A stretch of DNA of 63,920 bases, filler included, from Folioceros fuciformis (lineage: Eukaryota): the NCBI GenBank assembly GCA_049999805.1. It is 8 parts of 8 records of this genome, joined end to end, with 100 filler letters (N's around TTAATTAATTAA, not from the genome) between each part and the next. Parts side by side here need not be neighbours in the genome. Positions count along the whole stretch, not along the records: positions 24,589 to 40,560 come from JBNGIO010001254.1; 7 more parts are not named here. One strand, given 5' to 3'. A model generated the notes under the pieces. The model was not told the origin of the DNA, searched no databases, and saw only the letters and a program-made list of their open reading frames with translations. The position numbers and the translations under genes were made by a program. Positions 6,666-52,771 of this stretch are shown here, one piece after another (the stretch's first letter is position 1; each line of letters begins with the position of its first letter).

Positions 6666-7004
6666 TCCAGATTTGGCATTGAGCAGAGGCGGAGGAAGCC
6701 GAGCCGAGGAAGGGCAGGCAGGGCAGAGCAGGGCAGGCAGAGCAGGAGTGAGACGAGAAGCGAGGTCAGAAGAGGCTTATGTAGCCCCGCGCAAGGACAT
6801 TGGGCGGCGGCTCCGATTCAGAAGAAGGAGAAGAGCAAGAAGCGCAAGCAAGGAGCAAGAAGTCAGGACCCTCAGCAGCAACAGCAGCCCAGATCAGTGT
6901 CGCCGCGCAGCCATCGCCAACAGGAGGAGGAACTTCGCGCGGAGACGACGACTTCACGGGCAAGGCATCCAGTCAGACTCATCGTTTCCCGTCCGACGCT
7001 GCCC

Positions 7005-16467: not shown

Positions 16468-16567
16468 NNNNNNNNNNNNNNNNNNNNNNNNNNNNNNNNN
16501 NNNNNNNNNNNTTAATTAATTAANNNNNNNNNNNNNNNNNNNNNNNNNNNNNNNNNNNNNNNNNNNN
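16468..16567. other. Artificial contig spacer
   Basis: N44-TTAATTAATTAA-N44. Confidence 0.97.
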
Positions 16568-17589
16568 CCATACTCATCAGCTGTAGGGAGTTTGATGTAT
16601 GCAATGATTGCTACACGTCCTGACATTGCTTTTGCAGTGGGAGTGGTTAGCAGGTTCATGTTAAACCCTGGCAGGAAGCATTGGGAGGCAGTGAAAGGAG
16701 TTATGAGGTATTTGAATGGTACAAAAGCTTTGTGCTTATGTTTTGGTAGTGAAGATGCATCTGTAGTGGGATATACGGATGCTGATTATGCAGGGGATAT
16801 GGACAAAAGGAGGTCCACATCATGTTATATCTTCATGTGCACTGGAGGGGCAGTCTCATGGCGATCTCGTTTGCAATCGTGCATAACGCTATCTACCACA
16901 GAGGCCGAGTATGTTGCAGCGACTGAGGCTTGCAAGGAAGCCATGTGGCTTGCTCGTTTAGTGGGAGATTTGGGGATCAAGGGTGAGCTGCTAGTGTTGC
17001 ATTGTGATAGCCAGAGTGCTATCTAGTTGGCGAAGAATCCAGTGTTTCATGCGAAGACCAAACATGTGAAGTGAAGTATCACTTCATTCGAGAGGTGTTG
17101 GAAGACAAGAGGGTACAGCTTGTCAAAGTTCACATCAGTCAGAACCCTGTAGATGTTCTTACCAAGGGGCTCTCTACGGAGCAATTCGCACAAGCTCGGA
17201 CACTCATGGGCATGAGCTAGACCACTCTCTTATGAAGGTAAATTGGCCTTTAAGTGGGAGGTTGTAGGGTTATTAAAGCCCAATGTGCTTAGGCTAATGT
17301 GTTTAGTCTAAGATTAGTGTCTAGTTAATGTGCTTAGACTAATGTGTTTAGTCTAAGATTAGTGTCTAGTTAAGTATCATTAGTTTAGATTAGCTTACGC
17401 TAATCTGTAGGAAGCTTCTTGCGCAGCTTCCTGTGAGCTTCTTGTGAAGCTTCCTAGGGAGCTCTTCTAGAGGGTATAAATACCCCCTTGAGCTTCCTTG
17501 CCAACTACTCTCAATGTGACCTCTTTTTCTCCTCTCCTCTCTACCTCCTCTTCTCCTCTTCTCCACCATGCTCCTCTAGTGATCCTACA
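16568..17589 (+). mobile_element. Ty1/copia LTR retrotransposon 3' part (RT end, RNase H, PPT, 3' LTR), defective
   Basis: YSSAVGSLMYAMIATRPDIAFAV, GYTDADYAGD, LSTTEAEYVA, CDSQSAI*LAKNPVFHAKTKH (in-frame stop, then frameshift). Purine tract AAGTGGGAGG precedes an LTR at 17263-17589 bounded by TGTAGG...CCTACA, with TATAAATA and an internal 45-nt duplication. Confidence 0.93.
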
Positions 17590-19884: not shown

Positions 19885-21079
19885 CTACCTTCCATCTTGC
19901 ACACTACTATCTTGCGTACCTGATCTTTTAACAGATTGGGACTCTGAATCAGAGCGATGTGACTCAGGCAGCCACCTCCGTACCTCCACTGGCTTCACTT
20001 CCAAGCTTTCCAAGTCCTGAATTAGGAGGCCTGAGAAAGATGTAACTCTGGGAACAACGTAAAGCAACAGAAGAGTCTGCACAACCACACTTTACGTCAG
20101 ACCACCCACCCGACCATAGCAAGCCACCCATTGCCGAAAGAACAGTAGCATTGCTGTGCTTACCTTGGAGACACTGCCACAAAGGCGGTTCATGGCATGA
20201 ACATCCGCCCAGTTAGCAACTCTTTGCCTCTGCTCACCTTCTGGCACAATGATGACAGCATATCTGCAGATGAAGCAGGCCTGAAGGACCATACGCACAA
20301 TAAAACGGAGACCATGAATGAAAGAGTTGCCTGGCATGAGGGATGAAACGCACTGCGAGTGAACCAGCTCAGGATGATGACGATAAGCAAGAAAGTCGGC
20401 TCCATACTGATGGCCTGACCTCACCACCCAGTGTCGTTCACGCAAATACAGAAACCCCTTGTACCGCTGACGAAAGAAGGCCCGACCCCGCACCATACAG
20501 GTCCAAAGCTCCGCGCAAGTCAGCAGTTTCTGCCCCTGCAAAACATGAAGTCAGCGAGTGACCTGGTGTCGAAGGGCTGAAGATTCTACTAAGCTAGGAA
20601 TCGGACCTCGGGTCCAAAACTGTAGATGTGGAGACAACCCATGTGATGACAAAGGAAAAAGGCCTCCTCCAAGCCTAGATGCATCATCAGGCCATCACTC
20701 TTCTCCTGCACATCCAGTATCCGAGCTGGGCCTGTCAAACATAAGCATACCACGTTAGTAATGACATGGACCACGCCATCCGCTCGACTCCAACCTCCTC
20801 AGCATGTCACTACATACGTGCCGGCAAGTGAGCATCCCGCAGAGCAACCTTTGAAGGTGCAGCGGCTGGGAGGACCAAGGTTCCGAAGCATGCTCGGCTC
20901 AAAATAGCTGCTTGTGTAGAGGTTGCCATAACAAGAACTGCACTCTGCGCCACATGCCCTTCCATCGGGGCCCATCTCCGCATCTCATCATACAAAACAG
21001 ACAAAGGATCCATCTGAGCCGCAGATTTTCCCCCGCTCTTCCATGTCCCTCTGTCACAAGGATAATCCTGCTCTACCAT
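19885..21079 (-). CDS. SEN2: tRNA-splicing endonuclease catalytic subunit Sen2, 5 exons
   Basis: LSRACFG, LGLEEAFFL, YLRERHWVVRSGHQYGADFLAYRHHPELVHSQ|YAV, NRLCGSVSK|TLLLLYV, VRRWLPE. Catalytic Tyr/His/Lys are all present. Confidence 0.92.
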
Positions 21080-21231: not shown

Positions 21232-21809
21232 ATGCCGCCTAAACTAGACCCCTCGCAGGTGGTGGAGGTGTTCGTGCGGGTGACTGGTGGTGAGGTAGGA
21301 ATTGATCATGCCATCATTGTGTGCCTGTGTGTTTGTCTGTTGTGGGGAAGTGCTGACAAGGATTTGCTTCGAAGGTGGGAGCGGCCTCGTCGTTGGCCCC
21401 GAAGATCGGGCCTCTAGGTTTGTCACCTAAAAAGGTGGGAGAAGACATCGCCAAGGAGACTGCAAAGGATTGGAAGGGTCTGCGGGTGACTGTGAAGTTG
21501 ACGGTGCAGAACAGGCAAGCCAAGGTATCCGTGGTCCCAAGTGCGGCCGCTCTGGTCATCAAGGCTCTAAAGGAGCCCGACAGGGATAGGAAGAAGGTGA
21601 AAAATATCAAGCACAACGGGAACATCAGCCTCGATGACGTGATTGAGATCGCGAAAATCATGGCCCATAGGTCCATGGCCAAGCAGCTGGCGGGAACGGT
21701 GAAGGAGATTTTGGGGACCTGTGTGTCTGTAGGATGCACTGTGGACGGCAAGGACCCCAAGGTCCTACAAAGCGAGATTGACGATGGCACGGTGGAGATT
21801 CCAGAGTAG
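21232..21809 (+). CDS. RPL12: 60S ribosomal protein L12 (uL11), one intron 21295-21374
   Basis: [50 protein letters not shown]...[19 protein letters not shown]. Confidence 0.98.
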
Positions 21810-24588: not shown

Positions 24589-26985
24589 ACTGTATTGGGT
24601 ACCCCGGCTCAAAAACCAATATACATACATATTTTTATATTAACTTTTGGAGACCGTGTTTCAAGAAGCCCCGTGGCTGGCCTCCTGCCTCCAAGCATGG
24701 ATATTATCACATGAATCCCATTGCTGATGTAAATACCTGAATTTATTGTAATATCCGGTTTTTATTTCTGTATAATAAATAACAAAATAAATTATACAAA
24801 TATTTTTGATACATTGTGGATGCAATTTTTTTTAATTTTTTCTTTTAAGATTAGATCCACTAAAATTAAAGTATATAGTTAAAGTTTTATTCATGAATAT
24901 AAAATTTGACAAGTTAATACTAGCTAATTATCAACTAAGGTAGTTTATATGTTAGCAACCGAAGCATGTTTAATAGCTTTATAGACTATCTCACATAATG
25001 TTGTAAACTTTTCTTTTTGGAGCTCAACCTGGATTAAGGTTGGATTGAGATTAAAGCTTTTGAAGTGCAATCAACTATCCCTTTTCATAGTAGTGCATTT
25101 CTTATATTCAACTTTTTGAGCAAGATATTACTTTTCTATATGGTTTTTGGGTTATACGGATCTTAGTGGGGCTCCTAGCTATTACATAGGAATTCATAAA
25201 GTCATCTTTATTAGAGGACTTACCACATACTAACGATCTTTCCCAATTAGGGGACCCACTAGTAGCATTTGGTATTTTATCATTTGGCCTTTGCCCATCA
25301 GCTGAACTAGCTCTTATTTATTGTTTCATTCTCTTCAAGAAGGTTAGGGTTGTCTTGTCCTCTTTTGTTTTGTTCTCTAAGAATGGATTCCACGAATGTC
25401 ATGCTTCCTCCTTAAGAAGTCTTCTTCCTAGGGTTTTTCTTTGAAAGAAAGAAAGAAAGATCATATTTTTATGTTGTATATGTAGTGCTTAGGAAGTCAT
25501 GATCTTTAAGATTTTGTTAGTTAGAGTGTCATCCCCAATTCTTCAGGTTGAGCATGGCATGAATGCACCCTGAGAAAAGTTTGTAAGTACTCTTCTATGT
25601 AGCACGTGCATGCATCACCCTTGGCATTGAAACCCATTGAGCTATGGACAAGGTTTTTTTATTTAAGTTTTAAGGTTTTTTCTTTAAGCCTGTGCTTAGG
25701 AGTATCATAGTGCATGAAAGAGTGAGGTCAATCCCAGTGCATGAAAGAGTGAGGTCAATCCCACTCCAAGGCTGTGACTTTGTACTAACAGGGAATCTAG
25801 CAAGCATTATCCAATGCGGAGTATAGGATGACAACAAGTGCATTGAGATACATATTGTAGGGTAGTCCTATCCTATTCTTGACTTTGGCATCTCTACATG
25901 GTGGGTCATTAGAAGATATCGGTAACCAATGGGTTAGTGTGTGCCCTCCCAAAAGTTTTTCCTTTAATTTGTCTTGTAGTAGATGAATTTGTCCCATATT
26001 TCTCTATGTAATAAAATCTTTATTTTCCCCCCTACATATTAGAAGTCTTTGTGTATGTCCTTCTATGTGCCCTAACTCCATCAACAACTTTGATATTCCT
26101 ATGTATGAAGATAAGGTTCTTATTCCCTTTCCTCTTGACTTTTGAAGACCATGAGGTATTGAACAAGAACTTTTCAAGAGTAATTATGGATTATACAAAA
26201 GATTATTATAATCACAGAAATAATTTTTATTATAGTTGCTTTCTTTGAAACAAGGCATCTTCATTGCTCTGTAAAACAAACACCTAGCAAACAAAACAAT
26301 CAGCTTAACAAGTAATGCAGACCCAGAGTTTAGTGGGCTCCAATAAGCCCTTAATTAGTGGGGCATTAGGTGACTACGGTATACACGCAGCTAGGCTGGC
26401 CCATTTTTGCTGTTGTTACATGGGTTTTCCATGTGATCCTTGAATAAAAAAACCTCTCAACGTACGGTCGATTTCTATAATATACTTCGTAGCTATATCC
26501 TACATACGCATTTGAATATGCCGTCCCCGCTCGCTTTGCTCTTCTTTGAAGGTAAAGTGTCGAACGTCGGCCGCGCCGGCATTTCTGAATAGAGGCTTTC
26601 TCCACGACGGTATGCTCGTTCTGGGAGTCGGCCAAACCGTCGGAGGCGGAGTGCAGGTGGCAACCACTTGTCCAGCCGGTGGTTTCTGAACTGATGCCCA
26701 CAGGTGGAGCAGCAGCTTAAGAGACTTTAGCTTCATGCTGTTTCTTGAGCTGGTATTCGACCTGAATGCTGGCTGGTTGCTGGGGCTACGATTGAGCAGA
26801 GCCTGCCAGGACCTCAATCCCTTACATGCTATCGGCGAATGGCGGGTATGTGGGTCTCTCGTACACGGAGTGGCGTCCCACGGTTACTGAGACTCAGTGA
26901 CTTCCCTCGAGAGAGATCCACCATGATTGGAGGAGGTGTCTGACGTGGTTGGTCACTTCTTGGTTTTGCTTCTCCGCTGCTCTTG

Positions 26986-29109
26986 ATGGGGTCAAGTGCC
27001 AAGTTCAATGTGTATGAAAACGCCGCTGTGGCTGAAGTCCTCCGTGAGAGGGCGATTCGGCCATCTGCCACCGCTTTGTTGTCGGTTTTAGGTGTTTTCT
27101 TTGCGGCCACATCAACTTTCGCGTTCCTCTTGCTCAATTGGGAGGCAGTTGTATTGTTTTTCGTCTCCCTGGGTGTCAGCCACGGTGTTGCCAGCACAGC
27201 ATTGGGCGTAGGGAAATGGGTTGGTGGTATCATTTGTCTGGCTGCAGTTTCTGCAGTCTGTAAGGTGATGTATCTCATGTTTGCTTCGAATGGCGGGCTA
27301 CAGATTTCGGAGGGCAGGGGGGCCAGGTATAAGCGGTCTATGTCTCTGACAGAGCACCAGCAGTCTCTCTTGGGCATGGTCTCAGTGAATCAGCAGAAGT
27401 TGGCACATGAGAAGGAGGAGGAGTCGGATACCACTGCTGCTATGAGGCAGCGACCTCCAAGATCGAAGGCGAGGGTGTCTGCATCACCGTCAGCGTCTCC
27501 TGTCTTGGTACCCGTCCACACTCCAGTAGTATCCAAAGGACTGCGGAGCACGGGTACAGTCGTTTCCTCGCCATGGGGGGAAGTTTTCTCTCATCCTATC
27601 GCCAGTGCAGGTCAGGCACCGTCATTGTCTCCAGGTAGAGTTACCACTCCAGTATCTCAGTACCGGGGACAGATCCCCCCCTATGGATCATCACCATTTA
27701 AATCTGCCTCACCATCCTCTGTGCAGAAATCACCTGCAAGTCCCTGGGGCAGAGATCACCAGTTTGGTCTCATGAAGGACGAGGTGAACAACGAAGAAAA
27801 ACTGGAAGAGTTTTTGGCGGACGTGCAAACTAAGATGGTTGAATCCTCTGCTACGAGGACACCAGGAACAGGAGGTCAAGGGTATCTTACCCCTCAACCG
27901 ACTATATCAGGTGTAGGGACAGGCTTAAGCCCTGCCGCTAATTTCACTCCCCGTTCAAGCTCAAGCACTCCCAGAAGCGGCCCTAAGCGACTCCCGAGGA
28001 TGTCTCCCAGCACTCACAAGACTGTGACTTCTCCAAAGAAAGGGGAATGGGAATTTCCTCTTCCAATGTCCATGGAGCAGGTTGCCGAAGCTTTGCAGAA
28101 ACTAGGCTTTGTCGCACAGCTGGAACAAGGGAGAGATAGACTGCGGCAGTGGTTTTCTGGTGTCCTGCTTGATCCTCTGGCTTGTAAATTAGACACAAGT
28201 CACTTGCAGGTTGTGAGTGCTGCAGCCAAGCTTGGTGTTTCTATCACTGTAGCACAGGTTGGCTCTAGCGGCCAGAACGGGCGCAGAGTCTTTGCTGGAG
28301 AGGGAGCCTCACGGGAATGGCTCTCCACATTAACCCCAGATGATGATGTTGCCTTGCATGAACTTCGTACACGTCTTTTGCAGGCTTTGAGTCCACCACG
28401 TCCTACATCGACTTTCGGGCTTCAGCAAGCACAGCATGTGGTTGATCCTGCGATTCGTGAGTGTTTTGATGCCGTGACAGAGCATCAGCGATTAAAAGCT
28501 CTCATGGAAGGTGATTGGGTAAAGGGGTTGCTTCCACAGAGTACTTGGAAAGCAGAGGTTGCAGTACAGCGCGTTAGAGAGTTGGCTGAGGGAACCTGTG
28601 TTAAACGGTATGACTTCATGGGTCGTGGGGAGAGTTACGACAGAAACTCCAAACGGTTGCCCTTGGAGCTGCCATCGGATTCCCATCTCCTGGTTTACCT
28701 GTTCTGTGCACTTTTGGAGCACCCTCAGTGGATGTTGCATGTGGATCCAACATCCCATCCCAGCACGCAATGTGGGAACAATCCTTTGTATGTTGCTAGT
28801 ATGCCACACAAGGACGTGTTCCCTGAGAAGTATGTTGCTGTCTTGTCTCACCCGCCACCAGTTTTGCACATGGGAGCCTGTGTTTTGGCTGTAAGTAAGC
28901 ATACACCTCCAGTGTTTGCCTTATACTGGGACAAGAAGCTGCAATTTTCTCTGCAGGGGCGAACTGCATTATGGGACGCCATTCTTCTTCTGTGCTATCG
29001 GGTGAAGGTTGCGCATGCAGGTGTCATTAGAGGCATCAACCTTGGGTCTTCTGCCTTGAACCTTCTCTCTTTGTTAGAGTCATCTGGACAGAATGATACC
29101 GGTAGATGA
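26986..29109 (+). CDS. TMEM209: TMEM209/PNET1-like nuclear-envelope transmembrane protein (CytochromB561_N family), single exon
   Basis: 707-aa ORF: KFNVYENAAVA, two to three N-terminal TM helices, Ser/Pro-rich middle, RDRLRQWFSGVLLDPL, QRVRELAEGTC, ELPSDSHLLVYLFCALLEHPQW, GRTALWDAILLL, IRGINLGSSALNLL. Confidence 0.88.
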   Translation: MGSSAKFNVYENAAVAEVLRERAIRPSATALLSVLGVFFAATSTFAFLLLNWEAVVLFFVSLGVSHGVASTALGVGKWVGGIICLAAVSAVCKVMYLMFASNGGLQISEGRGARYKRSMSLTEHQQSLLGMVSVNQQKLAHEKEEESDTTAAMRQRPPRSKARVSASPSASPVLVPVHTPVVSKGLRSTGTVVSSPWGEVFSHPIASAGQAPSLSPGRVTTPVSQYRGQIPPYGSSPFKSASPSSVQKSPASPWGRDHQFGLMKDEVNNEEKLEEFLADVQTKMVESSATRTPGTGGQGYLTPQPTISGVGTGLSPAANFTPRSSSSTPRSGPKRLPRMSPSTHKTVTSPKKGEWEFPLPMSMEQVAEALQKLGFVAQLEQGRDRLRQWFSGVLLDPLACKLDTSHLQVVSAAAKLGVSITVAQVGSSGQNGRRVFAGEGASREWLSTLTPDDDVALHELRTRLLQALSPPRPTSTFGLQQAQHVVDPAIRECFDAVTEHQRLKALMEGDWVKGLLPQSTWKAEVAVQRVRELAEGTCVKRYDFMGRGESYDRNSKRLPLELPSDSHLLVYLFCALLEHPQWMLHVDPTSHPSTQCGNNPLYVASMPHKDVFPEKYVAVLSHPPPVLHMGACVLAVSKHTPPVFALYWDKKLQFSLQGRTALWDAILLLCYRVKVAHAGVIRGINLGSSALNLLSLLESSGQNDTGR

Positions 29110-29262
29110 CGTCAGGGTCACGGCGGTGAGACTGGACTTAGAATGCCAACGCCTGTAGTTTAGACGGTTATCTTTCGGATATTCCCAAAAGTTTTGGTGC
29201 GCAAGACACAGCTCGTCTTTTTTGCTGTACACTACGGGCTGTACCCACTTACAGAACAAAGC

Positions 29263-32069
29263 CTAGCGTGTTTTCAAAGTGGGCGACCACGACAGATTTA
29301 AACCGTGCGGCTTATACAACTCGCTATTGGGCCATGTTTTTTCTACGATGAATCCTCGACTGACTTCAACCCACTGTCCAACACACTCCCAGCGAACTTC
29401 GGCTATCATGACTCTATTTTTCCTAGGCATATTTTGAGCTTTTGCTTCTGAAGCAAGGTTCTTAGCAGCTTCATGCAATCCTGGCACATCCAGCACCCTC
29501 CTGCAGCGTTCATCATCTATCCCTTCTATAACAACAGGTGAGAGCCATTCTAGCTTGGGTACAATGTACCACCTACTGTCATTTCTGAAGGGAACATGGA
29601 TGAAGTCATTGATGTGGCACCACCATCCCATCCAGTGCATCCCGTTCAGGGTTGCAACTTCGCAGCTGTGTTCGCTCTGGTCACCCTCCTGAGCATCTTC
29701 GAGAGCACATGCTCCGTTCATGCGACGCGTCGGACTCAGAGATTGACGTTTCTGGAGTATATTCCAAAGCCCGTATTCGTAAAACAGATAGCCTTTCAGA
29801 AGAGCTTGCGGGACAACCTCCAATCTGTTGCCTAACTTAGATGGAACATCAGCTTCCGTAAGGCCCCTCGCAACAGGTGTATCTTCTACCTTTTCCTGAG
29901 GAAAAAGCTCGTTGAGAAGTATAACAGCTTCGGCATGTGCAGAAAGAGCTAACTGATGTCGCAACCTTCTCTTTTTCTGAACTAGAGATTCACCAACATG
30001 AGGCCCAAGGAAGCAGCCGAAAAAATTATCCGTGTCTCCCAAATCCATCCAATTGTCACGTAGAATTTTGCCGTAGTCTATTGAAGCATTTACCTCATCA
30101 ACTAAATTGGCATCTTGAGAAGTGGAAAAAACGCCTGCACCCTCGTCACCTTCATTTCGGCAGTCATCTTGGTCCTCACTATCTGCAGAGGATTCAACAA
30201 ATTGTATGTCTTCCTCGTTCATTCCATCCACTTGTTTGATTTTGGTCCAAGATGCAGACGCCGGCGTTTTGAGACCAAATGCCTCCCAGGGACCCGTGTA
30301 AAGCAAAAATTTTACAGAAACTTCCCAATGCTGAACTGCTTGCTCTCCGCTCCTTGATACCTTCTGGATATCCTTGGACCGTGGTCTTCCAGTAGAAGAA
30401 GGATCACACAAACGACTTTCTTCAACTAGTTGGGCAGAGCCCACGTGTTCACTATCCCTGTTCACCTCTTTTCTTCCTTTCACCTCAAATAAAAAATCAA
30501 ATTCTCCAATTGTACGAGGAATTCCAGCTCCATGGGCAGCAACTCTCTGCAGTCTCCGAAGCATTTGTTTCTTCCGCTTTCCAGCATTCTCAAAACCTTG
30601 TCCCCATGCCACTCCAAGATTGGAAGAAGTACACTCAGTCTGCAGCTCATCGCGAGAACCTGAAACCGAATTACTTGAAGGTAGACCACTTGCACGATAA
30701 AAGTCAGCGGTGCTCTCGGACAACTGCTCACCATCTGCTGGCAAAACCTCTGAGACCTGTTGTGAGACAACCAGGCGGTGGGTCTGTATTGTTGGCAAAA
30801 ACCTCAACACGTATTCGACGCACAGCGCAAAATGGTCCCCTGAACCCCATAGAGACGTTAGCAGACAGCGTGTGCAATACAATGAAACTGACTACGGGAC
30901 ATGCATGGTTCCTACCAAGGCGGTTTTTGACAGGGTGCGACTTGAACCATGACTCAACCGTATCCCCATCAAGGCTTTCCAGCCAGTGAGAAACTTCCGG
31001 CCAGTGCTCATCGCCTCCTCCAAGCATACCAGCACACACTGTTGGCAGCTGTGTTCACAGAACAACAAGTGGAAGCCTAGTTGCCTCAGGATTCGGAAGT
31101 TCATTGCATCTATTGTCATCACGCTGATTTCATCTACTCCATACCAAATGACTCTTGCTCACCTCGTCAGAGTCCAGCAGCAGTGGCGGACTTGCAATGA
31201 GAAAGCCAAGATCCCTGACAAGCCTGCCAATGTCGTGCTATCGGAGTTAAACGTACAAAGGAAGAGATATCAAGTCTGCCAGGGAAGTGAAATATGTGTC
31301 GATAACACGACAGATCAAAGAGTACCTGTGCTGCAACCCTTTCAGAAACTCCCAACGATTCCGCGCGGTTCTATCCACTTTTAAATCATACTCGCTCACC
31401 TCGGACTTCGACAAACGGTCAGCCAAGGTGTCCAAAGGTTCATCTTTATCATTGATGATGCTCCTAGAAAAATGTGTCAAAGTCGCAGCAGACCTCACTT
31501 GAACTTGCGGAACAGCTTCCATAGCCCACTCACCTCCTTCGTGAGGGACTCTCCTGGATATCACAGAAATATGTACCTTCTTCCCCCCAGACTTAACCCT
31601 CCATTCTGCATAAAACTCAACGGAGCTAGAGACCCATGTGGTGCCAAACAGAACATGGTTGTAAGCTTTCTTCCTGCTATCCACTCCAAGCACCTGGTCC
31701 CTAGTGGATAGCAAATGAAATAACTGGTGCTTTCCCTCCTGCCCTGCTTTTGGCAGCCGATTACATGCCCCTAGGCACAGAGGAACCATTTGACCTCTCC
31801 TTCAAAAGCCGGAAATTTATAGAGTGCTCTAAAAATTCTGACATCGAGAGATCTGGATGGGTTCAAGCAACCATACCGATGAATCTCCTCCAAAAGACCA
31901 AACCCACAAGTCAGACGACAGGCAGGCAGCAGGTACAACCGTGGAATGATTTGACCTACAACGAAAAGGGACTCGGTTGTAGATATTATCACAGCAGAAG
32001 CTTAACTACAGCGTCACCGCGCCCAGGTACCAGTTTTGAAAAGCTTCCTTCCCTCATTCGTACAGGCAT
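29263..32069 (-). CDS. DUF1853-family protein (predicted PD-(D/E)XK-like nuclease) with long N-terminal extension, ~6 exons; start uncertain
   Basis: Spliced motifs in DUF1853 order: RLVRDLGFLIASPPLL; KNRL|GDHFALCVEYVLRF; RTIGEFDFLF; VQHWEVSVKFLLY; FLGPHVGESLVQKKRRLRHQLALS; LLKGYLFY; MGWWCH; WYIVPKLEWLSP; EVSRGFIVEKTWP. Introns are GT-AG with compatible phases. Confidence 0.75.
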
Positions 32070-32980
32070 GGTGCAGTCACCTCCACGCCCCAGAACATGA
32101 TTCGTACAACCAACGGAATAGAACACCAAAACTCAGTTAAGCTACCGCTACTCGCGTTCGAGGCTTGTGGTCATGCCTTCAGACTTTGCAACTGGTTTCG
32201 CAAGATTGTAGGGGTCTGAGCTCCACCAGTTCTGAGCGGAAAATTAGTAAGCTCTTGAAATGTTAGGAATTCTCTCACAAAGAGCCTCGTTCACAGCCGA
32301 CGACTGGCTCATGGCGAACTAGAGATGTTCACGATCCTGGGTGCTTTGTCATACTTGGTGCACCTGCACAGATGCAGCCTCCGACTCACAGGTTTTGCTG
32401 TAGTGACAACGTCGCGGTTATAAGCGTACACGCTACGGACCGCCATGAGCGTAATAAATGACACCCATTGCCTTCCCCTGGAGTTTACTCTGGTGAGGAC
32501 GCACTGCCGGCTTTGACATGAGGACTCGCACACGAAATCTGACGCTAAACATTGCGGCAACATATCTTCAATCACCGATGGATGAGTTGAGGCGCGTGCT
32601 CGGATATCCCGGCCACGGGCGGTACGGTACACAGGTTTACAACCACTAGCTTCAACTGCTGCATCTTAACCAACAGCCGAACAGGATATCTTCAACCAGC
32701 TACATCCCTCACCGAGGAGCGACGGCTCAAAATTGGTTAATTTTATTACCAAGCCCAGATGGCAGGTACCGCAGGGAAGGACACGCAACGAACGCCAGCG
32801 CGATCACCGTTCAACTTCTTGACAGCCGAGAATTGAAAAAGGCAAACCTTGTCCGTTTAGCCGGACAGACCTCAACTTGAGCGAGAAAAATGTACAAGAT
32901 GGGACTCTTCTTTCATAGGCCACGAGACTAGCACGAGGTAAACGGCGGTGTTCTCTCAAGTTGGTTCCACTGTGACGCCC

Positions 32981-34689
32981 TTACGCCTCTGCAAACCTGC
33001 GCACGGACAAAAACGAATGTTGGAAGGCCCGCAGGGAGTAGACTGAGACAACTGGGTGTTCGAGAGGTAAGATACTAACCCGAGCTCGGACAGCGCAAGG
33101 TGGGATTCCGAGTAGTCGTTGAAGAACGCATCCTCGTCCTGCTCAAGGAGTTGGAACAGAGTTTGGAAAAGGAACAGAAAATGGCTACACTAGATTTCTA
33201 GCACACTCACCTGTGCATACAGCTCCACGTAAGGCCGAAACTTGTCATCGGTAACGAGAGCCTGATCAGAAGGCAGCTGGAGGAGACCTTCAGATTCGCC
33301 CTTCAAGAGCTCCCTAAAGATGCAGCCAAATATTTTAGCGCCAGAAAGTCGCCTCGGGTACGGGAGAGATTGTAACCAGCCACAGAATATGTTCATAAGT
33401 TCACATCTTGCCTATCACAGTGCAACCCATCATGGCAGAACCAAGTAGTATGGCTGTGCATAGCTACTCACACGAAGTAGGAGTTGTCAAACAACAGGGG
33501 CTTCGGAGTCCAGGCTCCCTCGAAGCCAGACCGCTCCTTGTGTGCTCTTCCCTGCAGACGACATTATCAGTGCAGCTCTTCCGTGACAGAACCAAGTGTC
33601 CCAAATGCTACCATCACTGCATTACCAGAGTGTGTGCACCGGAGAGCGCGACAATGTCCTTGTCACTCAAGCCCATGTGCCCAAAGACATCCCTCAGGTG
33701 GCTAGGTCCTGTACGCATCCCGCAGATTAGGAATCCATAACCAAAGAGGTCAACTGCAAGGTCCTCAACGTGTCTAGGGTAGGGTATCAACCTTTAGTGG
33801 CATCAGGAAGACGACCTTCCTCGGGCCCTTCCGGCAAGTCCTGCAGACCGACAACCCCACGCGAAAGGAAACAAACAAGATTCGTGACAAACTTGCTCGT
33901 CGCAGTGAAAAGAGAAAGAAATACCTCCACCACTAGGGCGTTCTCCCCAAAGTAGACTGACCTGGCGGCCTGGATGGAAAGGAATGGTCGGCCCACCAGT
34001 GACCTCAACTGCAACGACTCCAGCGAGCTTCAAGAGAGACAGGATGCTATGTTAGCAGATGCCCTCACCTCGAGGAGAAAACAAAAGAAGATTCAGAAGA
34101 CTATATACAACCTGATAGAAGTCGGCATAAGTCAAGATAGGGAACTGCTCCTTCACGGGTTCAAGGAGCTTGATAGCGATGTCCAGGCCGGCATTGGCTC
34201 CATGGGCAAGCTCGCTTGCGTAACGAATAGTACCAAAAGGGCCTCCAGTCTTCGTCGCCACATCGTATGTTCCAGCTGCATGCCACCTGTCCAAGCACAA
34301 AACATAACAGCTTACTGGTTTACTACTTGCTGAATCAAACAACGGAGTCCTAAAGGCCAACCAAACCATTCAAGCTCTTGACCAGAGTGGAATCCGGACT
34401 AGGACAAACGAGACCATCACGGATGGGAAAAGACTTACGCAAGGCGGACGATGATGGGGGCACAGTTCTTCTCTGCATCCAGGAAACATATACATCCGAT
34501 CAAACCATGAGATCACTTACGCCTGATGACAGCGCGACTTTGCAAACACTGTGAAAAAGATCCTTTTCAACACGCGGGAACCACATCGTCACACCACATA
34601 CCTGCGATAAGACCCCGCAACTTTCTGCGAGCCTTCTCCACTGCCTTGAGGTACTCGTCACTGACAACAGGGTAAACCTTTCCGGCCAT
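32981..34689 (-). CDS. APX: Cytosolic L-ascorbate peroxidase, 10 coding exons plus a likely 5'UTR intron
   Basis: [49 protein letters not shown]...|[13 protein letters not shown]...|[10 protein letters not shown]|...[26 protein letters not shown]...|LSELG|FAEA*. No transit peptide or TM tail. Confidence 0.97.
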
Positions 34690-35798
34690 GACGCCTCAAC
34701 TCTGATGAGGTAAAGAAGAAAATACGGTGCAAAAATTAAAAAAAAAACCAATCTCAGGAAGAAAAAGCTAAGAACAATATGGAAGCGCATCGTCTACGAG
34801 TTCCCTTTGATACGTCCTACAGCCTTAACCAAGACTGTGAATGCAGCGACCTCGAACAAGTCGAAGCGACCTTACCACCAAACATCAACATCCAGCTATG
34901 CGAGCTGCTCAGGTCAGAACTACCACGCGATCATGCCATAGAAGCGTGAATGCGAGGAGCGAAGACTCTACGGGCAGAATACCCAAAAGACAGACGCAAT
35001 GCGCCGACTCACGGCGGAAACGCTCCAACGTAGTCAGGCGATACAAGGCAGTAGGCAAAGAGCAGCTACCGAGCGCTTACCAAGAGCACCGCGCGCAAGG
35101 CTAGCGATGAGAAGGCGGTCGGATGCGGAAGCGGACGACGGAGCGTGGCGGCCACACGAAGTTGTGATGAATGAGAGGAGAGGTATGGACAGGGTATAAG
35201 GGCGAAACCGCGTGGTCGACTTCGTCGCCAGTTATTTCGCTCACGGGAGTGGCGAAATGTGGGCACAACTTCATAGTTGCGTAGCGTGGGTCGTGAGGCT
35301 CCTCTGACCAAGCGCTGTTCCGCCGATTTTTGCCTGGTTCACGCATCTATCGGGGGACCGTTGTGTGGCGTTTGATGCCTTCGAGATCCTTCGCGAGTAA
35401 CAGCAAGATGCTTAAAAAATACCAAGTACTGTTGTCTGTTGTAGACCCGGAAGCCTTACCCGAACCCATTCCGGCTTCCAGTAACTTGTACCACCTAGAC
35501 TTCTCACCGAGACAAGCCAACGAACACAAGCTCCCCAACTGACTGTCCACAGAGTTCAGTTATCCCACAATGCTGAAGTTGCTTGTCAGTATGTATACAA
35601 GACCAAAGGATTCGCCATTGATGGGAGCTGTTAAGACCTAGCATGGTGAACTATCATCACTTTGATTAGATGCGCTACATATTATCAAATAATTAGCACG
35701 AATTGATCAGAGAATAATTTTTAAAGTATTATCTTATTTAAAATATTTTTTTCCTGACTGCGTGGTATCGGAGTATGTTCAAAATAATAACATTGAAC

Positions 35799-36666: not shown

Positions 36667-39600
36667 CTACAAAGACATCGAGGTCATGAGCCCCTCCAGA
36701 GCGGACTTCAAGTTCTTGTTCTCTCCATCTTCCTTGTTCTGGTGGTGAAAGCAACGCGTGAGTGAGGAGGTCACACAGATGTTCAAACGCTCATGGAGAT
36801 GCTGGAGAGAAAAGCAAAACAAAAGAAAAACAAAAAAAGAGAGGATGACGGACCATGCAAGGAATAGAGTGTACGAGGGACGGGACGGGGTGGGAAGATC
36901 CGGACCTTGACGTGAATGGAATGGTAGGCCATTCGCTCGTTGGTGCTTTTCTGCGCCGTGACAACCTTGAATCTGAGCTGATCCAGCAAAAGCAACGTCT
37001 TCCAGAAAAAGTCGGGCCTGGCTCTCGGGCTGGAGAGGGTGATGAAGGCTTCCATCCCGAATATGTCAAGAGTGACAACCGGAGATGTTGAGTGCGGCTT
37101 GATGCCGTCGCAGGAGCTGCCCGCATTGTTGGCCTCACCGCTGCTCAGCTGCACGGAGATGGGGTCCTGCGGAGAGGTGGAGGTTGCCACCAAGCTATTG
37201 CTCTTGGTGCCGAAAGAAAGTTTCTTGGAAACCTTGTGCACGCCGGAAGCTGCCAGAACATGGCGGGTGCTGTACAGAAGACTCTGAGCCACTGTCAGCT
37301 CCGCCTTCTTGTGCGTCAGAGTCTTCATGGATTGCTGCATTTCCTGGATGTAGGTGATGGTTTGAGCTACGACCTTGAGCCTGTCCGTCGGCTGCAAACA
37401 ATGTTACACACGTGAGTACACTTGGCAATGCCTGGAGCGGCAGTGTGGAAGGAAATTGCAACATGCGAGTAAGGAAGAGGTTCCGTGCTTACCCTTGGAT
37501 TGTTGCCATCGGGAGGTAGCAGGGAGCCTAAGGTGGAGAGCATACAATTCATGCTCCTCCGACGCCTCCGCTCGGCTATCACGTGGCTCTCCCGCTCGGA
37601 ACTCGGAGGGAGTTTGTCAGACTCTTCCAGGCCATCAACGTTCTCCTCGTTGCTGGCACGAGCAGCGGCGTCCTTTTTGGACTCCTTCCTCGGCTTCTTG
37701 CTCGGTTTGGACGGGGTGGTGAGCGTATCGGACTTGGCTGCACTCCGCTTCCGGCTTCCCGTTGGTGTCTTGGGCTGGACAAGTCCCGATTGAGCCGCCC
37801 TGGTGGTAGGCTTCTTGGCGGCTGCTGCGTCCAGCTCCGATCCGTGTGCACTGTCAGGGGAGCTGTGTTCTTCATTCTGTCTGGTCCTCTTCAAATTTCT
37901 GGAGGCAGCCTGAGGCGATGTTCTGGCAGGCTGGCGTCTGAGGGAAGGCTGCTTCGAATTCCCAGTGCCTGGTGTCGGGGGAGCTGCTCCAGGAGTGTCG
38001 CAGGCTGCAGCAAACTTCTTGCTTCTCTTCTGCTGCGTGCCAGTGGCAACTGCAGAGCTTTTCCTCTTGCTTCCATCAACGGCAGGCAGGGCAGAAGCGG
38101 GAGAGCGCACCGCGGGCGCAGGGGATTGACCAGAAACCGTTTCCCGACTGCAGCTGGTTGCACTCCCTCTGGCACAGCGACGACTCCTGGCAGCAGCAGG
38201 CGGCGTTGCAAGCACACAAGTGGTGGCGGCGTTGTCACCCGTCTTGCGGCCAGGAGACGCGAGAGCCTCCCCAGCTAGCTTGGCTTCCCCAGCAGCAGCG
38301 GCTGGTTTGTGTGCGTCATCCGAGACAGGTGGAGTTGTCGACGAGGAATCCGGAGGCCCCGCGGTGGCGATGCTGATTTCCAAATTGGAGGCGGACTTGT
38401 TGAGCTTCAAGGAGGAGGACGTTCTGCTCAGGGAAGCAGCTGCAGGCAGGTTGAAGTCTGTGACGGTGGCGGATGCCAAGTCTGCCAACACGGTTGGCAG
38501 TGCGTCGAGATGGCACATGGAAGCTGAGAGCTCCTCCGGATCCAGATCCTGGGAGGTACTCCTGCGGGAGGGAGCCGTGTCCACGTTGGCATCCGAGTTG
38601 CAGCACGTGGAGCCCTTATCCATGACGCCTGGCCTGACATCGTGATGGCTGCAGTCCAGGTCGGGGAGGTAGTCCTGTATCCCTATCAGCTTGCAGTCGT
38701 GATCCTGGCCATCGATAGCGAAGTTGTCGTCCCTCCGCAGGCTTGGGGCCGAGGAGTGGAGGAAGTCGAGCAGCATGTCGGGGTCGGAGTTGGGGTCGGA
38801 GCCGGGGCCGGGGCCGGGATCCAGCTCGGGCTCCTTGAGCCAGTGCTGGACACAGAAGTCGTCCAGCTGGAAGGGAATGTCAGGCAATCCATCCACAGCC
38901 AGCGGCGCGGGCGGCGCATCTGACTCCGCTTCCACTTCCTCCGAGCCCCTGCTGCCGCTTCTGGCGCGCAGGTCCTTGACGTGGATGTGATCCGCCCAAT
39001 GCATGACGGTAGACGCGTTGCTCCCGGGTGTAGTCGGAGCCGGAAGCACGGCGACGGAGCCGTTCTCCTGGCCGGCGGAGTGCGTCGCAAAGGTGGGAGT
39101 GGTAGCAGCAGGAGGTGCGGCGGATCCGGCGTTGTTGAACATTGCCGAAGAAGCGCCGGTTGCCATGGCTCCGCTGCAGGAGGGAAATTGCAGCAGTTGC
39201 GCAAGGTCATGGTCACCGAGATGCTGCCCCGCCGCGGGCCCTGCTGCGGCCTCCATCTGCAGCTGCAATTGCAATTGCATTTGCAATTGCGAGAAGGCAG
39301 GAGCTGGAATCAAGTCAATCCCGGGGTCCCGGAAGGCATCCGGCTGGACGGGCAGCAGGTTTGCCAACATCCAGTTGCTGATCCTGAGCTCCCCCAAACC
39401 CGCATTCGGATTTACATTGCAATGCGACGAGTCGTCCAAGAGCTTGGAGTGGCCCCAGCGTCGCAGCGCTGCCGTCATGAACGCATTGGCGCTGGTGTTA
39501 CCATTGGACTGCAACCCTGCCTCGGCCTGCAGTTGCTGGTGAGCGACGTCGCCGTAGCAGCCGACCTGCAACTGAGGGTGCTGCTGCTGCTGTTGCGGTT

Positions 39601-39739
39601 GCGGCTGTTGCTGAGGCTTGTTGTAAGAGCCGCAGGCGGTCCAGCGAGGGGCAGCTGGAGGGGGATGCGGCAGGGTGAGAGGCAGGCGGAGGGGTGGCGT
39701 CGGTGGCGTCACCCAGGAATCTGCCGACAGAACTCCCAT
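36667..39739 (-). CDS. bHLH transcription factor with C-terminal ACT-like domain (ZHOUPI/bHLH95-like) and very long low-complexity N-terminus, 3 coding exons
   Basis: SERESHVIAERRRRRSMNCMLSTLGSLLP...|PTDRLKVVAQTITYIQEMQ. ACT-like VVTLDIFGMEAFITLSSPRARPDFF...KVVTAQKSTNERMAYHSIHVK|NKEDGENKNLKSALEGLMTSMSL*. First in-frame ATG is 39739; an acceptor near 39838 suggests an upstream exon. Confidence 0.85.
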
Positions 39740-40431
39740 TGCAGACGCGGCAGTGGTAAGTGTCTGCAGCTGTGGAATTGTGGATCCCTTTCCAGCTGTT
39801 GCTACCCGAGACTGGAGAAGTGACGGTGGCTGACCCACTGTGAAAGGAGACAAGCAACGCGCGAGGGCAGGCGGGCAGGCTACATGCAGACGGGAGGGGA
39901 AGGGAGGGAGCTCCAGACCCAGACAGGAATGGAATGTGCCGTGTTTGGCAATGTCGCGTAAGCAGAGGGGATCAAATGGCAGAGGGAAGACGCGGAGATG
40001 CTACAAGAAAGATCCGGCGAGGCAGCACTGACGGGAAGAGACGAAGACGCATACTCGCGTGGGCGCCGCTGTTGCGCCGTGTTTGTGGCTGCGCCGAGTG
40101 CGGGCTTGCGCTGCATGTCAAGTTCCCCACAACTTCTCGCCTCGCGGGTACCGTACTGTGCCGTAAAGTCAAACAACTAGGTTAAATTTTGAATGATGCT
40201 TCACACATATCCTACACATGATAAAAAACTATTATAAAAATGTACGTATAGAGTGGAGGGACGCAGGTACGCCCACGTAATCACAAAAATGGTAAATTAA
40301 AGCAGTGCAGTTGTTACGCGGAACGCACCCGACGTCACACGACACAGGGCGCAGTCTATCATTTGTTTAAGACGCAAACCGTTAGAATGATAGCTGGCAA
40401 TAGCTGGTTTCACATCGTCACGACCAAGACC

Positions 40432-41570: not shown

Positions 41571-43077
41571 ATGGCCGTGCACGACCATCGCGCTCCCGCG
41601 CCTTCTACCTTTCTGCTTCCCGATTTGCGCAACAGGTGAGGTGCTATATGCCTGCCGTCTGCCTGCCTGCCTTCCTGCCTGCCTGCCTGAAGCCGCTGTG
41701 CTGTCTTCTCGAGCCGCCGCGCCCTCCTTCCTTCCTTGCTCACAAGCTTGCTTCTCTGTGTCTCTTGGTTGGTGGCAGCAGGATGCGGATGAGGTACAAT
41801 CAGGCACAGGACGCCGCCGCCAACCCCTGCGCCTCCTCCTTCGTGCACCAATTTTATCACTACACTGACGTTGGTACGACTACTGCTCTCTCCCCTCCCC
41901 ATGCATGCCTCTGCCTGCGCTGCCTGCGCAGTAATTTGTGGCGCTGTTGCAGCACGCATTGCCTCACAAATTGCCATTCTGTTCTGTGCTCTTGCAGTGC
42001 CGTCGCCGCTACTGCCTCCCCCCGCATCCTGCACTTCGCTCTTCTCCAACACCACTGACAACAATATGCAGCCACAGGCAGCAGCAGCAGCACCCGCGGG
42101 GGCCGTGTCCCGGAAAAGAAGTCGTCAATCTGCACAGCTGCAATCTGATTTTGGCGGCCTACACGCCTCATGCTCCGCTACACTTGCCGCCCCGGTCTCC
42201 ACTGGCTTGAGGCTTGCCTTCCACGACGACGCTTTCGCCTCGCCGCTCCCTCCTTTCGCCACCGCCTCCACCCCCCCTGCGCCTGCGCCTTCTCTCTCGC
42301 TGCTTCACCACGACTTCACCTCCACCCTCTGTCAGCAGCGCCAAGACACCAACCTCTACCTCACGCTCCAGGTAATGCCCGGCACACACGCCTTCACGCC
42401 CAGTCACACTGCTCCCTCTTGTTCGACCCCCTTTAAAGGTCTCTCTCGCCTTGCTCTTCTGTGTGTCGCAGGGAGAGCACATGCGCCACACTCTGCAGCA
42501 CAAGAGGGAGAAACTTGTCGCGGCTTTACTGGAGGCCGTGGACCAGCGCGTTTCCAAGCGTCTCAGCGAAAGAGATTTGGAATTGGACAAGCTCAGGTCT
42601 AGGAATCTGCAACTGGAGGAGCTCGTCAAGCACCTCAATCTGGAGGCTCATATTTGGCAGAACAAGGTCAAGACCACCGAGAACATGCTCATCGCCTTGC
42701 ACACCAATTTCCAGCAGGCTGTCAACCTCAGCCGCGACCGCGAGCATTACAGCAGGGAGGGGTGTGGAGACAGCGAGGCGGATGATGCATGCTCCTCGCA
42801 AGCTGATGGTAACAATGTGGATGCCCAGGCCCAGGCCCAGGCCCAGGCCCAGGCCCAGGCCCAGGCCCAGGCCCAAGCCCAAGCTCGGGCCTTCAGCAAG
42901 GAAAATCGAGAGCTCAGGGAACAGAGGATCTGCAGGATCTGCAAGTCGAATGAAGTTTCCATTCTCCTCTTACCCTGCAGGCACCTTTGCCTTTGCAAGG
43001 ATTGCGAGACTCGGTTGGACAAGTGTCCCATCTGTCGCGCACTCAAGAACGCTAGCGTGCAAGTCTACATGTCATGA
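41571..43077 (+). CDS. BRG: BOI/BRG (SBP1-like) RING-HC E3 ubiquitin ligase, 4 exons
   Basis: MAVHDH...FLLPDLRNR|, VSTGLRLAF, coiled coil RNLQLEELVKHLNLEAHIWQ, EGCGDSEADDACSS, C-terminal RING CRICKSNEVSILLLPCRHLCLCKDC...CPIC...SVQVYMS*. Confidence 0.93.
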
Positions 43078-52115: not shown

Positions 52116-52771
52116 TCGAACAGAAGCTTCTCCCTCCCGCCCTGCACCTTCCTTTCCCTCTCCCCCCTACCGATACCCTACCGTCACCTGGCGTACCCTC
52201 TCCTCCCTTCTCCTCACTCAACCAAGCCTCACACAGCACCGCATACAAACTCCATTCCTCAGCACCCAGCTCGCAACGCACAAGGATGGCCGAAGTGCCA
52301 GCAACAGCAGGGGGACAGCAACAGCGCCTGGAAGCGTCTCCGGGCGCGTCTCGAACACCTCGCTCCGTCGGCGTGCCTCACTGTCTCTCGGAAAACCGAG
52401 GGAAGGAGCAGTTTAATACGCATGTTCGACTCCGGCCGCCCACCGTCACCGCATTAGGGCAAACAGCTGGCTTAGCACGCCGTCGTCGCGATCGACACGG
52501 TTCCGAAACGGTTTCGAAGCGGAATCGCGGGAGGGCCGTTACCAACGTTAAAATTTTCATGAGCGGGCGGCTGCTGGCTGAGGCTGCTGAAGCATTTCAT
52601 GGGTTCAGCCTTTTTCTTCCCTTCCTTTCCTGAACACTGCACATCCTTGCCTGTTTCGTCAGCACATCTCCTTCTGCCTCCGCCTTGGCCCACGGTGGCG
52701 AGGCAACACAGGTGCATGTTATGCGGACCCAATCCTCCTCCCTGAGCAGTGAAGCAGACGTTGGAGTTACC

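Follow-up and report, generated by a model that had tools for sequence, protein, structure and literature searches.

Does a hornwort carry a working nuclease gene of the mainly bacterial DUF1853 family and, if so, where did it come from? The question is raised by a minus-strand locus of Folioceros fuciformis (GenBank assembly GCA_049999805.1, record JBNGIO010001254.1), which lies within a window of 63,920 nucleotides, i.e. the whole stretch of DNA analysed here, filler included. The locus is a genuine spliced gene: one contig of run X1, treated as RNA because 13 joints fall at canonical introns, skips three introns, all with GT..AG ends (Table 1). The spliced transcript (31789 to 29263, minus strand) contains an open frame of 744 aa, or 655 aa if the second ATG is used, which closes with a TAG stop codon (29265-29263), and the gene is present as one copy. 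The initial annotation, which had described the gene as intact and spliced, is therefore borne out on both counts. DUF1853 being mostly bacterial, contamination or an annotation artefact could be suspected, but this reading is practically out of the question: it is refuted by the three canonical introns spliced out in RNA and, as had been argued from the outset, plant genes adjoin on the same contig; orthologues are moreover found across land plants.

Table 1. Coordinates of gene and protein features at the hornwort DUF1853 locus, counted along the window.
Feature	Position	Strand	Basis or content
Upstream RNA-covered region without joints	31790..32514	-	short upstream ATGs, including 32069
Coding exon 1	31326..31789	-	longest frame of RNA-supported spliced transcript
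Intron 1, 102 nt, GT..AG, phase 2	31224..31325	-	run X1 joint
Coding exon 2, 61 nt	31163..31223	-	conserved RD..SP.LL block, R158 and D159
Intron 2, 114 nt, GT..AG, phase 0	31049..31162	-	run X1 joint
Coding exon 3, 133 nt	30916..31048	-	3' end is R-L of motif I
Intron 3, 76 nt, GT..AG, phase 1	30840..30915	-	run X1 joint
Coding exon 4, 1,577 nt including stop	29263..30839	-	Pfam match and structure model
Motif-I helix, D221 / A224 (Glu in bacteria) / E228	30814..30837	-	residue census; model helix 2-15
Basic helix, residues 306-320, inserted before motif II	30538..30582	-	predicted helix 89-103
Motif II T-I-G-E-F-D, E332 and D334	30496..30513	-	row census
Motif III H-W-E-x-x-x-K, E392 and K396	30310..30330	-	row census; variant in PMC3045609 (accessible part)
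Acidic low-confidence insertion, residues 420-490	30028..30240	-	30% D+E; pLDDT <50 at model 213-244
G-P-H..E loop and second core helix, K508 and Q515	29953..30006	-	model helix 287-302

The 5' end of the gene had been placed too far upstream. A start at 32069 was rejected, as that ATG opens 26 codons only, the obvious splice from 32069 runs into a stop and no RNA joint was found for it. No splice joint was detected upstream of 31326, with contigs continuous over 31325-31894 and 31868-32514; the RNA-covered region upstream of exon 1 either belongs to the 5' UTR or reflects read-through of the gene lying upstream. Candidate introns inside exon 1, with strong-looking donors at 31576 and 31533, were also discarded, since the RNA contig reads through them. 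As the longest frame begins at 31789, the N-terminal extension, previously estimated at ~200 aa, is at most ~141 aa long, or 52 aa if translation starts from the alternative in-frame ATG at 31522. This part of exon 1, after which the conserved region begins, is not conserved, and BLAST returned no match between it and the extensions of other homologues. A minor longer isoform may exist, since contigs drop rare forms.

Exon 4 alone matches the Pfam profile PF08907 (DUF1853) with an E-value of 5.2e-21 and 75.9 bits, against a gathering cut-off of 25, which confirms the proposed family membership, and the spliced protein can be aligned with plant and bacterial DUF1853 members from residue ~146 to ~725. 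The conserved blocks indeed follow one another in order, as first described, but they are hardly distributed across the exons: exons 1-3 contribute the first ~75 conserved residues, whereas ~85% of the conserved region and both motifs originally quoted (TIGEFDFL, residues 329-336; HWEVSVKF, residues 390-397) are found in exon 4, which also holds the entire predicted PD-(D/E)XK core, the insertions and a Trp-rich C-terminal part. Seven homologous ORFs are alignable exactly from the intron 3 junction on, so that mosses probably have this intron as well. The long acidic insertions of the initial annotation come down to a single strongly acidic one (residues 420-490) among the six measured; four others contain 16-21% D+E, and the sixth, with 47% K+R, is a basic helix. 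In all 21 main-clade streptophyte rows scored, 7-13 K/R occur within the 26 residues that precede motif II, and the basic helix is a candidate nucleic-acid-binding arm or nuclear signal.

The hornwort gene is in itself an unremarkable orthologue, belonging to a family whose occurrence in plants was on record. PMC3045609 (2011), in its accessible part, records DUF1853 in plants, algae and Phytophthora, describes the ExxxK variant, terms motif I (E/Q) canonical, gives eukaryotic members as longer than bacterial ones and states that no characterised enzyme with an ExxxK site is known. The hornwort protein shares with DUF1853/PF08907/COG3782 the motif-II Asp, the ExxxK motif III (E392, K396), the additional basic residue in helix 2 (K508) and the greater eukaryotic length, but plant copies depart from that description: motif I has Ala (A224 here), a G-P-H..E loop is present, helix 2 is shortened by one residue, a basic helix precedes motif II, and there are disordered insertions as well as three introns. 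The motif-I Ala is a variant within DUF1853, and profile membership stands. Full-length land-plant orthologues are 32-37% identical to the hornwort protein over the conserved region and show the same motif order and signature, whereas neither the lengths of the inserts nor the N-terminal extensions are conserved, and ferns possess a second paralogue in which the motif-III Lys is missing. In the literature on DUF1853 we found neither a functional study nor a measured activity, so that the initial statement that no plant member has been characterised holds, although plant members had been reported. DUF1853/PF08907 is absent from the searchable supplement of PMC3045609, and DUF1853/PF08907/IPR015003 from those of PMC11906373, PMC7027989 and PMC8075897.

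A structure model of exon 4, which leaves the first ~75 conserved residues outside, displays a core in the order helix-strand-strand-strand-helix-strand (H2-15, E21-34, E108-121, E169-182, H287-302, E342-356), the motifs having block pLDDT values of about 87-97; D334 is located on strand 108-121, and E392 and K396 on strand 169-182. In a VIA comparison, restriction-endonuclease-like chains accounted for nearly all of the best 50 of 550 matches (Z>=2), headed by the R2 endonuclease (Z 7.6, rmsd 3.1, 101 aligned) and followed by Card1, NucS and 3fov (Z 7.0), the last being the match already given in PMC3045609 (accessible part). The cores of UPF0102/YraN (3fov), NucS (2vld), Hjc (1gef), R2 (9dou) and Card1/Can2 align to model residues 1-351 with Z of 5.3-7.6 and 7-17% identity to the hornwort protein, values of Z <8 that may mean no more than a common arrangement. 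These proteins carry ExK rather than ExxxK. The Foldseek check suggested with the initial annotation gave no match at E<=0.001 against PDB and BFVD, the best Z in a VIA run on Foldseek's own matches being 2.6, and a profile search of PDB sequences gave 0 matches. The core order of the model and its best VIA matches nevertheless support a PD-(D/E)XK-like fold for plant DUF1853, in line with the original assignment. For the Trp-rich C-terminal part, no clear structural match was found. ESM Atlas returned DUF1853 as the sole result for the Amborella protein; fungal clusters retrieved with the C-terminal 120 aa (0.90-0.91) were dismissed as chance, given their low recognition and few shared features.

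The putative active site is unevenly conserved. E332, D334, E392 and K396 are retained in 17/17 main land-plant rows, and D, E and K in 189/189 bacterial rows; the D...E-x-x-x-K set highlighted by the initial annotation is thus retained, but the change at motif I had been overlooked. There, Glu is replaced by Ala in all 14 land-plant rows having the region, while the corresponding bacterial position is Glu in 248 of 254 rows, Gln in 2 and Ala in 4 (chlamydial-type only). The same 14/14 land-plant rows retain D or E at position -3 and E at position +4 relative to the lost Glu. The motif-III Lys is lost from the fern paralogue (3/3 rows) and the motif-II Asp from oomycetes (2/2), indicating that catalytic sites of this family are able to decay, yet they are intact in the main clade. 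As read from the alignments, what is new here includes the retention of D334, E392 and K396 in land plants combined with the replacement of the motif-I Glu by Ala.

We lean, by a modest margin over even chances, towards an expressed, single-copy nuclear gene that derives from one bacterial acquisition and encodes a stand-alone metal-dependent PD-(D/E)XK phosphodiesterase, whose activity we infer. D334 and E392, probably with E332, would hold Mg2+/Mn2+, and the cut phosphate would be steadied by K396, by the basic residue K508 of helix 2, or by both; acids one helical turn either side of A224 (D221 and E228) may replace the lost motif-I Glu. The eukaryote-added basic helix beside motif II could grip the nucleic-acid backbone or serve nuclear import, and the other insertions are predicted to be disordered. 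Rather than acting in restriction or defence, the enzyme would most likely cut at particular structures or ends as part of housekeeping DNA repair or RNA processing.

The Ala found at motif I in 14/14 land-plant rows may also be taken to mean that the two-metal site is crippled and that the plant protein, with little or no catalytic activity left, binds nucleic acids or serves as a scaffold, as would suit the added basic helix and the persistence of oomycete and fern-paralogue copies despite more catalytic losses. We regard this as unlikely, at perhaps one chance in five, and give the same low weight to its corollary that the remaining catalytic residues are retained for binding or folding: D334, E392 and K396 do not vary within the main clade (17/17), the acids at -3 and +4 are kept throughout, and many PD-(D/E)XK enzymes are active without a motif-I acid. 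A more specific version of the active enzyme, namely an undescribed green-plant nuclease with a rewired PD-(D/E)XK site, in which the flanking acids together with the ExxxK Lys take over from the replaced Glu, acquired from a chlamydial endosymbiont at an early stage of eukaryote history, acting in organelle or nucleus and lost in flowering plants after the Amborella split, seems to us rather improbable as a whole. Organellar targeting is weakly hinted at by composition: the first 60 residues contain 7% D+E, 13% S+T and 12% R+K. Mosses and ferns show a comparable N-terminal composition, but three conifer-like rows have an acidic N-terminus and other rows a very short one.

Several observations hint at a housekeeping role. 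PADLOC assigned 0 families to 4/4 DUF1853 proteins, NCBIfam gave 0 matches, and no recurrent methyltransferase partner or defence neighbour appeared among the neighbours examined at 80 and 65 loci; DUF1853 thus presents neither the methyltransferase nor the defence profile expected of restriction-modification or defence. The family is rare on mobile elements (15 records among 72,556 from plasmids and 2 among 50,697 from phages, each 0.25-4 Mb long), uracil-DNA glycosylase adjoins it in 6/65 loci and also in Mycetohabitans, and in Aphanomyces it is fused to a 3'-5' exonuclease domain, the fused copy being devoid of the motif-II Asp. On the other side, most bacterial neighbours are without relation to nucleic acids: NAD kinase and metallophosphoesterase occur at 11 of the 65 loci, SpoU methylase with inositol monophosphatase at 8 and flavodoxin-like proteins at 8. 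We found no operon conserved across bacterial families, an absence likewise stated in the accessible part of PMC3424549.

With NAD kinase as the commonest neighbour, a DXO/Rai1-like activity comes into view, in which the protein would be an RNA 5'-end/cap hydrolase (acting e.g. on NAD caps or pyrophosphate) or a small nucleotide-cofactor hydrolase, not a DNA nuclease. DXO motifs comprise Arg, G-h-x-h-E, E-h-D, E-h-K, K-x4-h-h-Q and G-h-R (PMC4513879, accessible part). Bacterial DUF1853 has G-Y-Y-F-E and E-F-D, the E-h-D and K...Q patterns recur in the same order, and a K/R stands seven residues ahead of an invariant Gln in 29/29 scorable eukaryote-type rows. Such motif patterns are, however, common across the PD-(D/E)XK superfamily; plants lack the Glu of G-h-x-h-E, motif III is ExxxK instead of EhK, G-h-R is missing, and no sequence match to DXO/Rai1 was found. 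No DXO/Rai1 chain occurs among the best 50 of 550 VIA matches to the model, which is without the N-terminal part. We hold this reading to be a long shot.

Orthologues were found across land plants, with mosses, ferns and conifers among them; they include a compact one of 465 aa in Selaginella and are represented by Physcomitrium (XP_024379016), Selaginella (SELMODRAFT_402996), Ginkgo (Gb_40100), Adiantum, Ceratopteris, Diphasiastrum, Sphagnum and Cryptomeria, labelled 'uncharacterized', 'hypothetical' or by number only; Amborella (LOC18440672) is the sole angiosperm found, and the gene has apparently been lost in other flowering plants. Plant, algal and oomycete copies, among them Chara, Closterium, an MMETSP protein and two oomycetes, form one eukaryote-type clade in three trees (SH 94, 99 and 99; SH-aLRT 99), which makes the acquisition older than land plants. 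The AU test does not reject a tree separating oomycetes from the green clade (p 0.19); an earlier rejection of the split-eukaryote tree (p 0.014) was discarded as a product of unequal tree search, the rerun giving the former value. Bacterial ancestry of the family is supported, as initially proposed, but as judged from these trees the acquisition is not restricted to land plants, algae and oomycetes belonging to the same clade. The favoured scenario would be a single bacterial acquisition before land plants, probably before streptophytes, followed by vertical descent with introns and an apparent later loss in flowering plants except Amborella.

All six candidate sister groups are allowed by AU tests (p 0.21-0.62). 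The donor may conceivably have been a chlamydial endosymbiont, a source that has been suggested for other plant genes; we would give this about one chance in four. The bacterial motif-I Ala is limited to four chlamydial-type rows (Protochlamydia, a Chlamydiales MAG, another Chlamydiota genome and a protein 74% identical to the MAG), each with the plant-like D at -3 and E at +4; chlamydial-type rows adjoin the eukaryote clade in a FastTree phylogeny (SH 84), and when DNA was scanned with a degenerate pattern of the Ala motif, all matches were chlamydial-type or stramenopile-like loci. That scan missed 2/3 loci known to match and is therefore not exhaustive; a narrower chlamydial pattern search yielded a single weak match besides the MAG already known, and a locus search with one bacterial protein gave no match. 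Of the chlamydial pairs, just one lies near the eukaryote clade in the 70-row tree, alongside three other bacteria, and neither is its sister in the 101-row tree. AU tests allow a chlamydial sister group (p 0.57 and 0.43) along with other donors, and a chlamydial-type copy is present in just 3/401 Chlamydiota genomes, a fourth match being a short contig of a different type. In its accessible part, PMC2376095 makes no mention of DUF1853; it lists two hypothetical proteins, given without names, as chlamydial in origin.

An endosymbiotic source in the sense of a cyanobacterial gene arriving with the plastid, as also envisaged at first, is unlikely, and far more so than a chlamydial one. The gene does occur in green algae and plants, Synechococcus elongatus matches in the control set, N-termini of most seed-free plant rows are low-acid and Ser/Thr/Arg-rich, and AU allows a cyanobacterial sister group (p 0.50). 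Against this, the gene was found in 1/401 cyanobacterial genomes, the copy concerned sits on a long branch amid other bacteria and is not sister in three trees (nested in Proteobacteria according to the accessible part of PMC3424549), and oomycetes fall within the same clade as the green copies.

The family constitutes an entry point in that we found no tested function in the literature for any member, and single-copy orthologues in Physcomitrium and hornworts make knockout and assay straightforward. The apparent absence of the gene from Arabidopsis and crops would account for its having been overlooked, and would mark a nucleic-acid function retained by seed-free plants and gymnosperms but dropped by most flowering plants.

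The minus-strand DUF1853 gene of Folioceros fuciformis is a real gene and a new member of an already known family. Its 542-codon open frame, which includes both motifs quoted in the initial annotation (TIGEFDFL and HWEVSVKF), matches Pfam DUF1853 (E 5.2e-21), confirming the proposed membership, and is the genome's single match (one candidate, one scored). Splicing was likewise borne out: three GT..AG introns are skipped by contigs of the public run X1, which is recorded as RNA only by a guess but shows 13 joints at canonical introns of three genes. The four joined exons encode a protein of 744 aa if translation starts at the ATG at 31789, and of 655 aa if it starts at the one at 31522. The 5' end is shorter than the 29263..32069 originally claimed, because contigs upstream of 31326 continue unbroken as far as 32514, the ATG at 32069 is open for 26 codons only and a trial splice from there runs into a stop; that start was rejected. 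In a second run, from another organism, one contig aligns to two short stretches that encode the motifs, separated by a different spacer, as an expressed orthologue would; both runs belong to a single study. Seven homologous ORFs are alignable from exactly the exon 3/4 junction onward, and wrongly modelled proteins of mosses, ferns and conifers cease to match at or close to junctions 1 and 2, which suggests, indirectly, that the introns are common to land plants.

The gene is flanked by a convergent CytochromB561_N gene and by an upstream gene that we take, from its motifs, to be an ascorbate peroxidase; as argued earlier, the gene is not contamination. Between the end of the CytochromB561_N gene and the stop of DUF1853 exon 4 (29263-30839) lie 153 nt, and a single RNA contig, joints included, passes through both genes, suggesting that their 3' ends overlap. 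A joint of ~92 nt (shorter side 27 nt only) within the 721-codon CytochromB561_N frame could represent an internal intron whose alternative splicing shifts the frame, since 92 cannot be divided by three and the frame is open throughout. The peroxidase-like gene has nine RNA-supported introns and a contig depth about 50 times as high; the sparse contig cover in the interval to the DUF1853 gene may reflect read-through. Elsewhere in the window, the second of two tandem bHLH-like genes has no HLH match at E 0.001. Six ordinary plant loci include a PARP-domain gene, Mpv17/PMP22, a tRNA intron endonuclease and a RING protein, the remainder presumably being a copia-like retroelement fragment and ribosomal protein L12. 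Outside the window, the genome matches the LCIB carbonic anhydrase family in two exons, in order (G000:C1919:3950-4891); as PMC8075897 reports LCIB among land plants from hornworts alone, this points to a hornwort host.

Features of the window (coordinates in nt)
Position	Strand	Feature	Remarks
29263-30891	-	DUF1853 open frame	
30840-30915	-	DUF1853 intron	GT..AG
31049-31162	-	DUF1853 intron	GT..AG
31224-31325	-	DUF1853 intron	GT..AG
26944-29109	+	CytochromB561_N gene	E 1e-118
27632-27723	+	Possible intron	GT..AG
27724-31894		RNA contig	
32540-35110	-	Ascorbate-peroxidase-like gene	
36783-40000	-	Two tandem bHLH-like genes	877-codon frame, HLH match, E 2.5e-6
49872-52166	-	764-codon open frame	Ala/Glu repeat, coiled-coil-like end; no Pfam match
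5160-6776	-	Ordinary plant gene	
15177-15710	-	Ordinary plant gene	
16520-17026	+	Ordinary plant gene	
20092-20550	-	Ordinary plant gene	
21357-21809	+	Ordinary plant gene	
42376-43077	+	Ordinary plant gene	

DUF1853 has been assigned to the PD-(D/E)XK superfamily, with its ExxxK and helix-2 Lys described and longer members noted in plants, algae and Phytophthora (PMC3045609); plant members had thus been reported already. Residues ~146-725 are alignable with bacterial DUF1853 proteins (~310 aa), interrupted by insertions. These had been called long and acidic: one is indeed strongly acidic, but another ends, before motif II, in a basic helix found in 21/21 main-clade streptophyte rows scored. 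The N-terminal extension shows no conservation, its length being 1-173 aa in 23 of the 24 scored rows and 576 aa in Chara; in most seed-free plant rows it has few acids, which hints weakly at a transit peptide. An AlphaFold model of exon 4 only (139-row alignment; mean pLDDT 72.7, pTM 0.71) predicts confident core elements in PD-(D/E)XK order, with disordered inserts. A VIA wide search gave a moderate best Z of 7.6, nearly all of its best 50 rows being, by our assignment, restriction-endonuclease-like chains (rank 49 is unrelated, two rows are without placement); Foldseek searches returned no matches at E<=0.001.

The proposed D...E-x-x-x-K set is kept: E332, D334, E392 and K396 are retained in 17/17 main land-plant rows, and the motif D, E and K in 189/189 bacterial rows. 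At motif I, bacteria have Glu in 185/189 rows picked by similarity and in 63/65 from genome surveys (Gln in 2/65), the two sets sharing 3 rows. Land plants have Ala in all 14 rows with the region (6 further rows lack it), flanked by D/E at -3 and E at +4. Among bacteria Ala stands in four rows, every one chlamydial-type and with both flanking acids. Fifteen other eukaryote-type rows have Ala (8), Glu (3), Gln (2), His (1) or a gap (1). We lean slightly towards the plant protein being an active metal-dependent nuclease; that it would instead be a weakened binding protein appears improbable, and a DXO-like RNA-end or nucleotide hydrolase less probable again. The motif-III Lys is lost in the fern paralogue (3/3 rows); this second copy (proteins P0108, P0109, P0099, P0183), which also lacks the G-P-H loop, is likely an inactive duplicate. 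The motif-II Asp has been lost from both of the oomycete rows, and G-Q-L-K replaces G-E-F-D in oomycete and oomycete-like copies (proteins P0190, P0241; loci L210, L211).

Named homologues occur in Physcomitrium, four Sphagnum species, Selaginella, Diphasiastrum, Adiantum, Ceratopteris, Ginkgo (by Gb_ gene number), Cryptomeria, Amborella, Chara, Closterium, an MMETSP transcript, Aphanomyces and Globisporangium; named liverworts are missing from the list. A search with the Amborella protein, all 6,828 candidates (336-1,070 aa) being scored, gave 29 matches, all but itself at <=41% identity and none from another named angiosperm. Other flowering plants have probably lost the gene, but a word-based search in which most rows carry no species name falls short of proof. 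Bacterial spread is patchy: 33/301 genomes in Pseudomonadota, 31/201 in the order of one Burkholderiales genome, 11/201 in Bacteroidota and 4/401 in Chlamydiota, each count including the centre genome (a known carrier), and 1/401 in Cyanobacteriota, where it does not. The fourth chlamydial match (L085, G173:C204), on a 1.6-kb contig, resembles divergent Bacteroidota-type copies and is probably misbinned.

The bacterial or endosymbiotic acquisition proposed earlier finds partial support. All three trees place the eukaryote-type rows together on one side of a branch (SH 94, FastTree, 224 rows, 5 fragmentary rows omitted; SH 99 with 70 and 99 with 101 rows, both IQ-TREE PMSF). G-P-H..E with a seven-residue K/R-to-Q spacing occurs in 29/29 scorable eukaryote-type rows (6 did not fit the pattern) and G-P-x..D in 221/221 bacterial ones; unnamed rows were classed by G-P-H, so their eukaryotic source is presumed and the H is circular for them. 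Chlamydial rows adjoin the eukaryote-type clade in FastTree (84) and do so in part in the 70-row tree, but are not adjacent to it in the 101-row tree. An AU test (43 rows) rejected none of six candidate sister groups, and a fair rerun did not reject a tree splitting oomycetes from the green clade; no single donor is favoured. The trees being unrooted, transfer from bacteria to eukaryotes is argued from the family's breadth in bacteria and its patchiness in eukaryotes.

PMC3424549 gives DUF1853 function as unknown, and no functional study of DUF1853, COG3782, IPR015003, PA3089, PF08907 or an EXXXK nuclease was found in a search with most subscription journals outside its reach. The family has no entry in PADLOC or NCBIfam, hardly occurs on plasmids or in phages, and shows no recurrent methyltransferase partner among the bacterial neighbours examined. 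These differ by lineage: NAD kinase with metallophosphoesterase (11/65 loci), SpoU with inositol monophosphatase (8/65), flavodoxin-like (8/65) and uracil-DNA glycosylase (6/65, all Burkholderiales-order: L215-L218, L220, L227). In Mycetohabitans (L214:1305-8954), tsaB, uracil-DNA glycosylase and an overlapping DUF1853 gene lie in order, with alr and radA nearby. The Aphanomyces protein joins DUF1853 to a 3'-5' exonuclease domain, and one DUF1853-UPF0102 fusion is listed in a supplement of PMC3424549. P0166, a eukaryote-type protein from marine metagenomes, has an N-terminal BSD domain (E 1.9e-7). Neighbours, fusions and scarcity on mobile elements hint weakly at nucleic-acid housekeeping. The motif-I Ala, single eukaryote clade, chlamydial signature and apparent angiosperm loss were not found in the accessible parts of PMC3045609 and PMC3424549. 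The gene is of modest interest, as a testable orphan nuclease candidate with an odd active site and an odd distribution.
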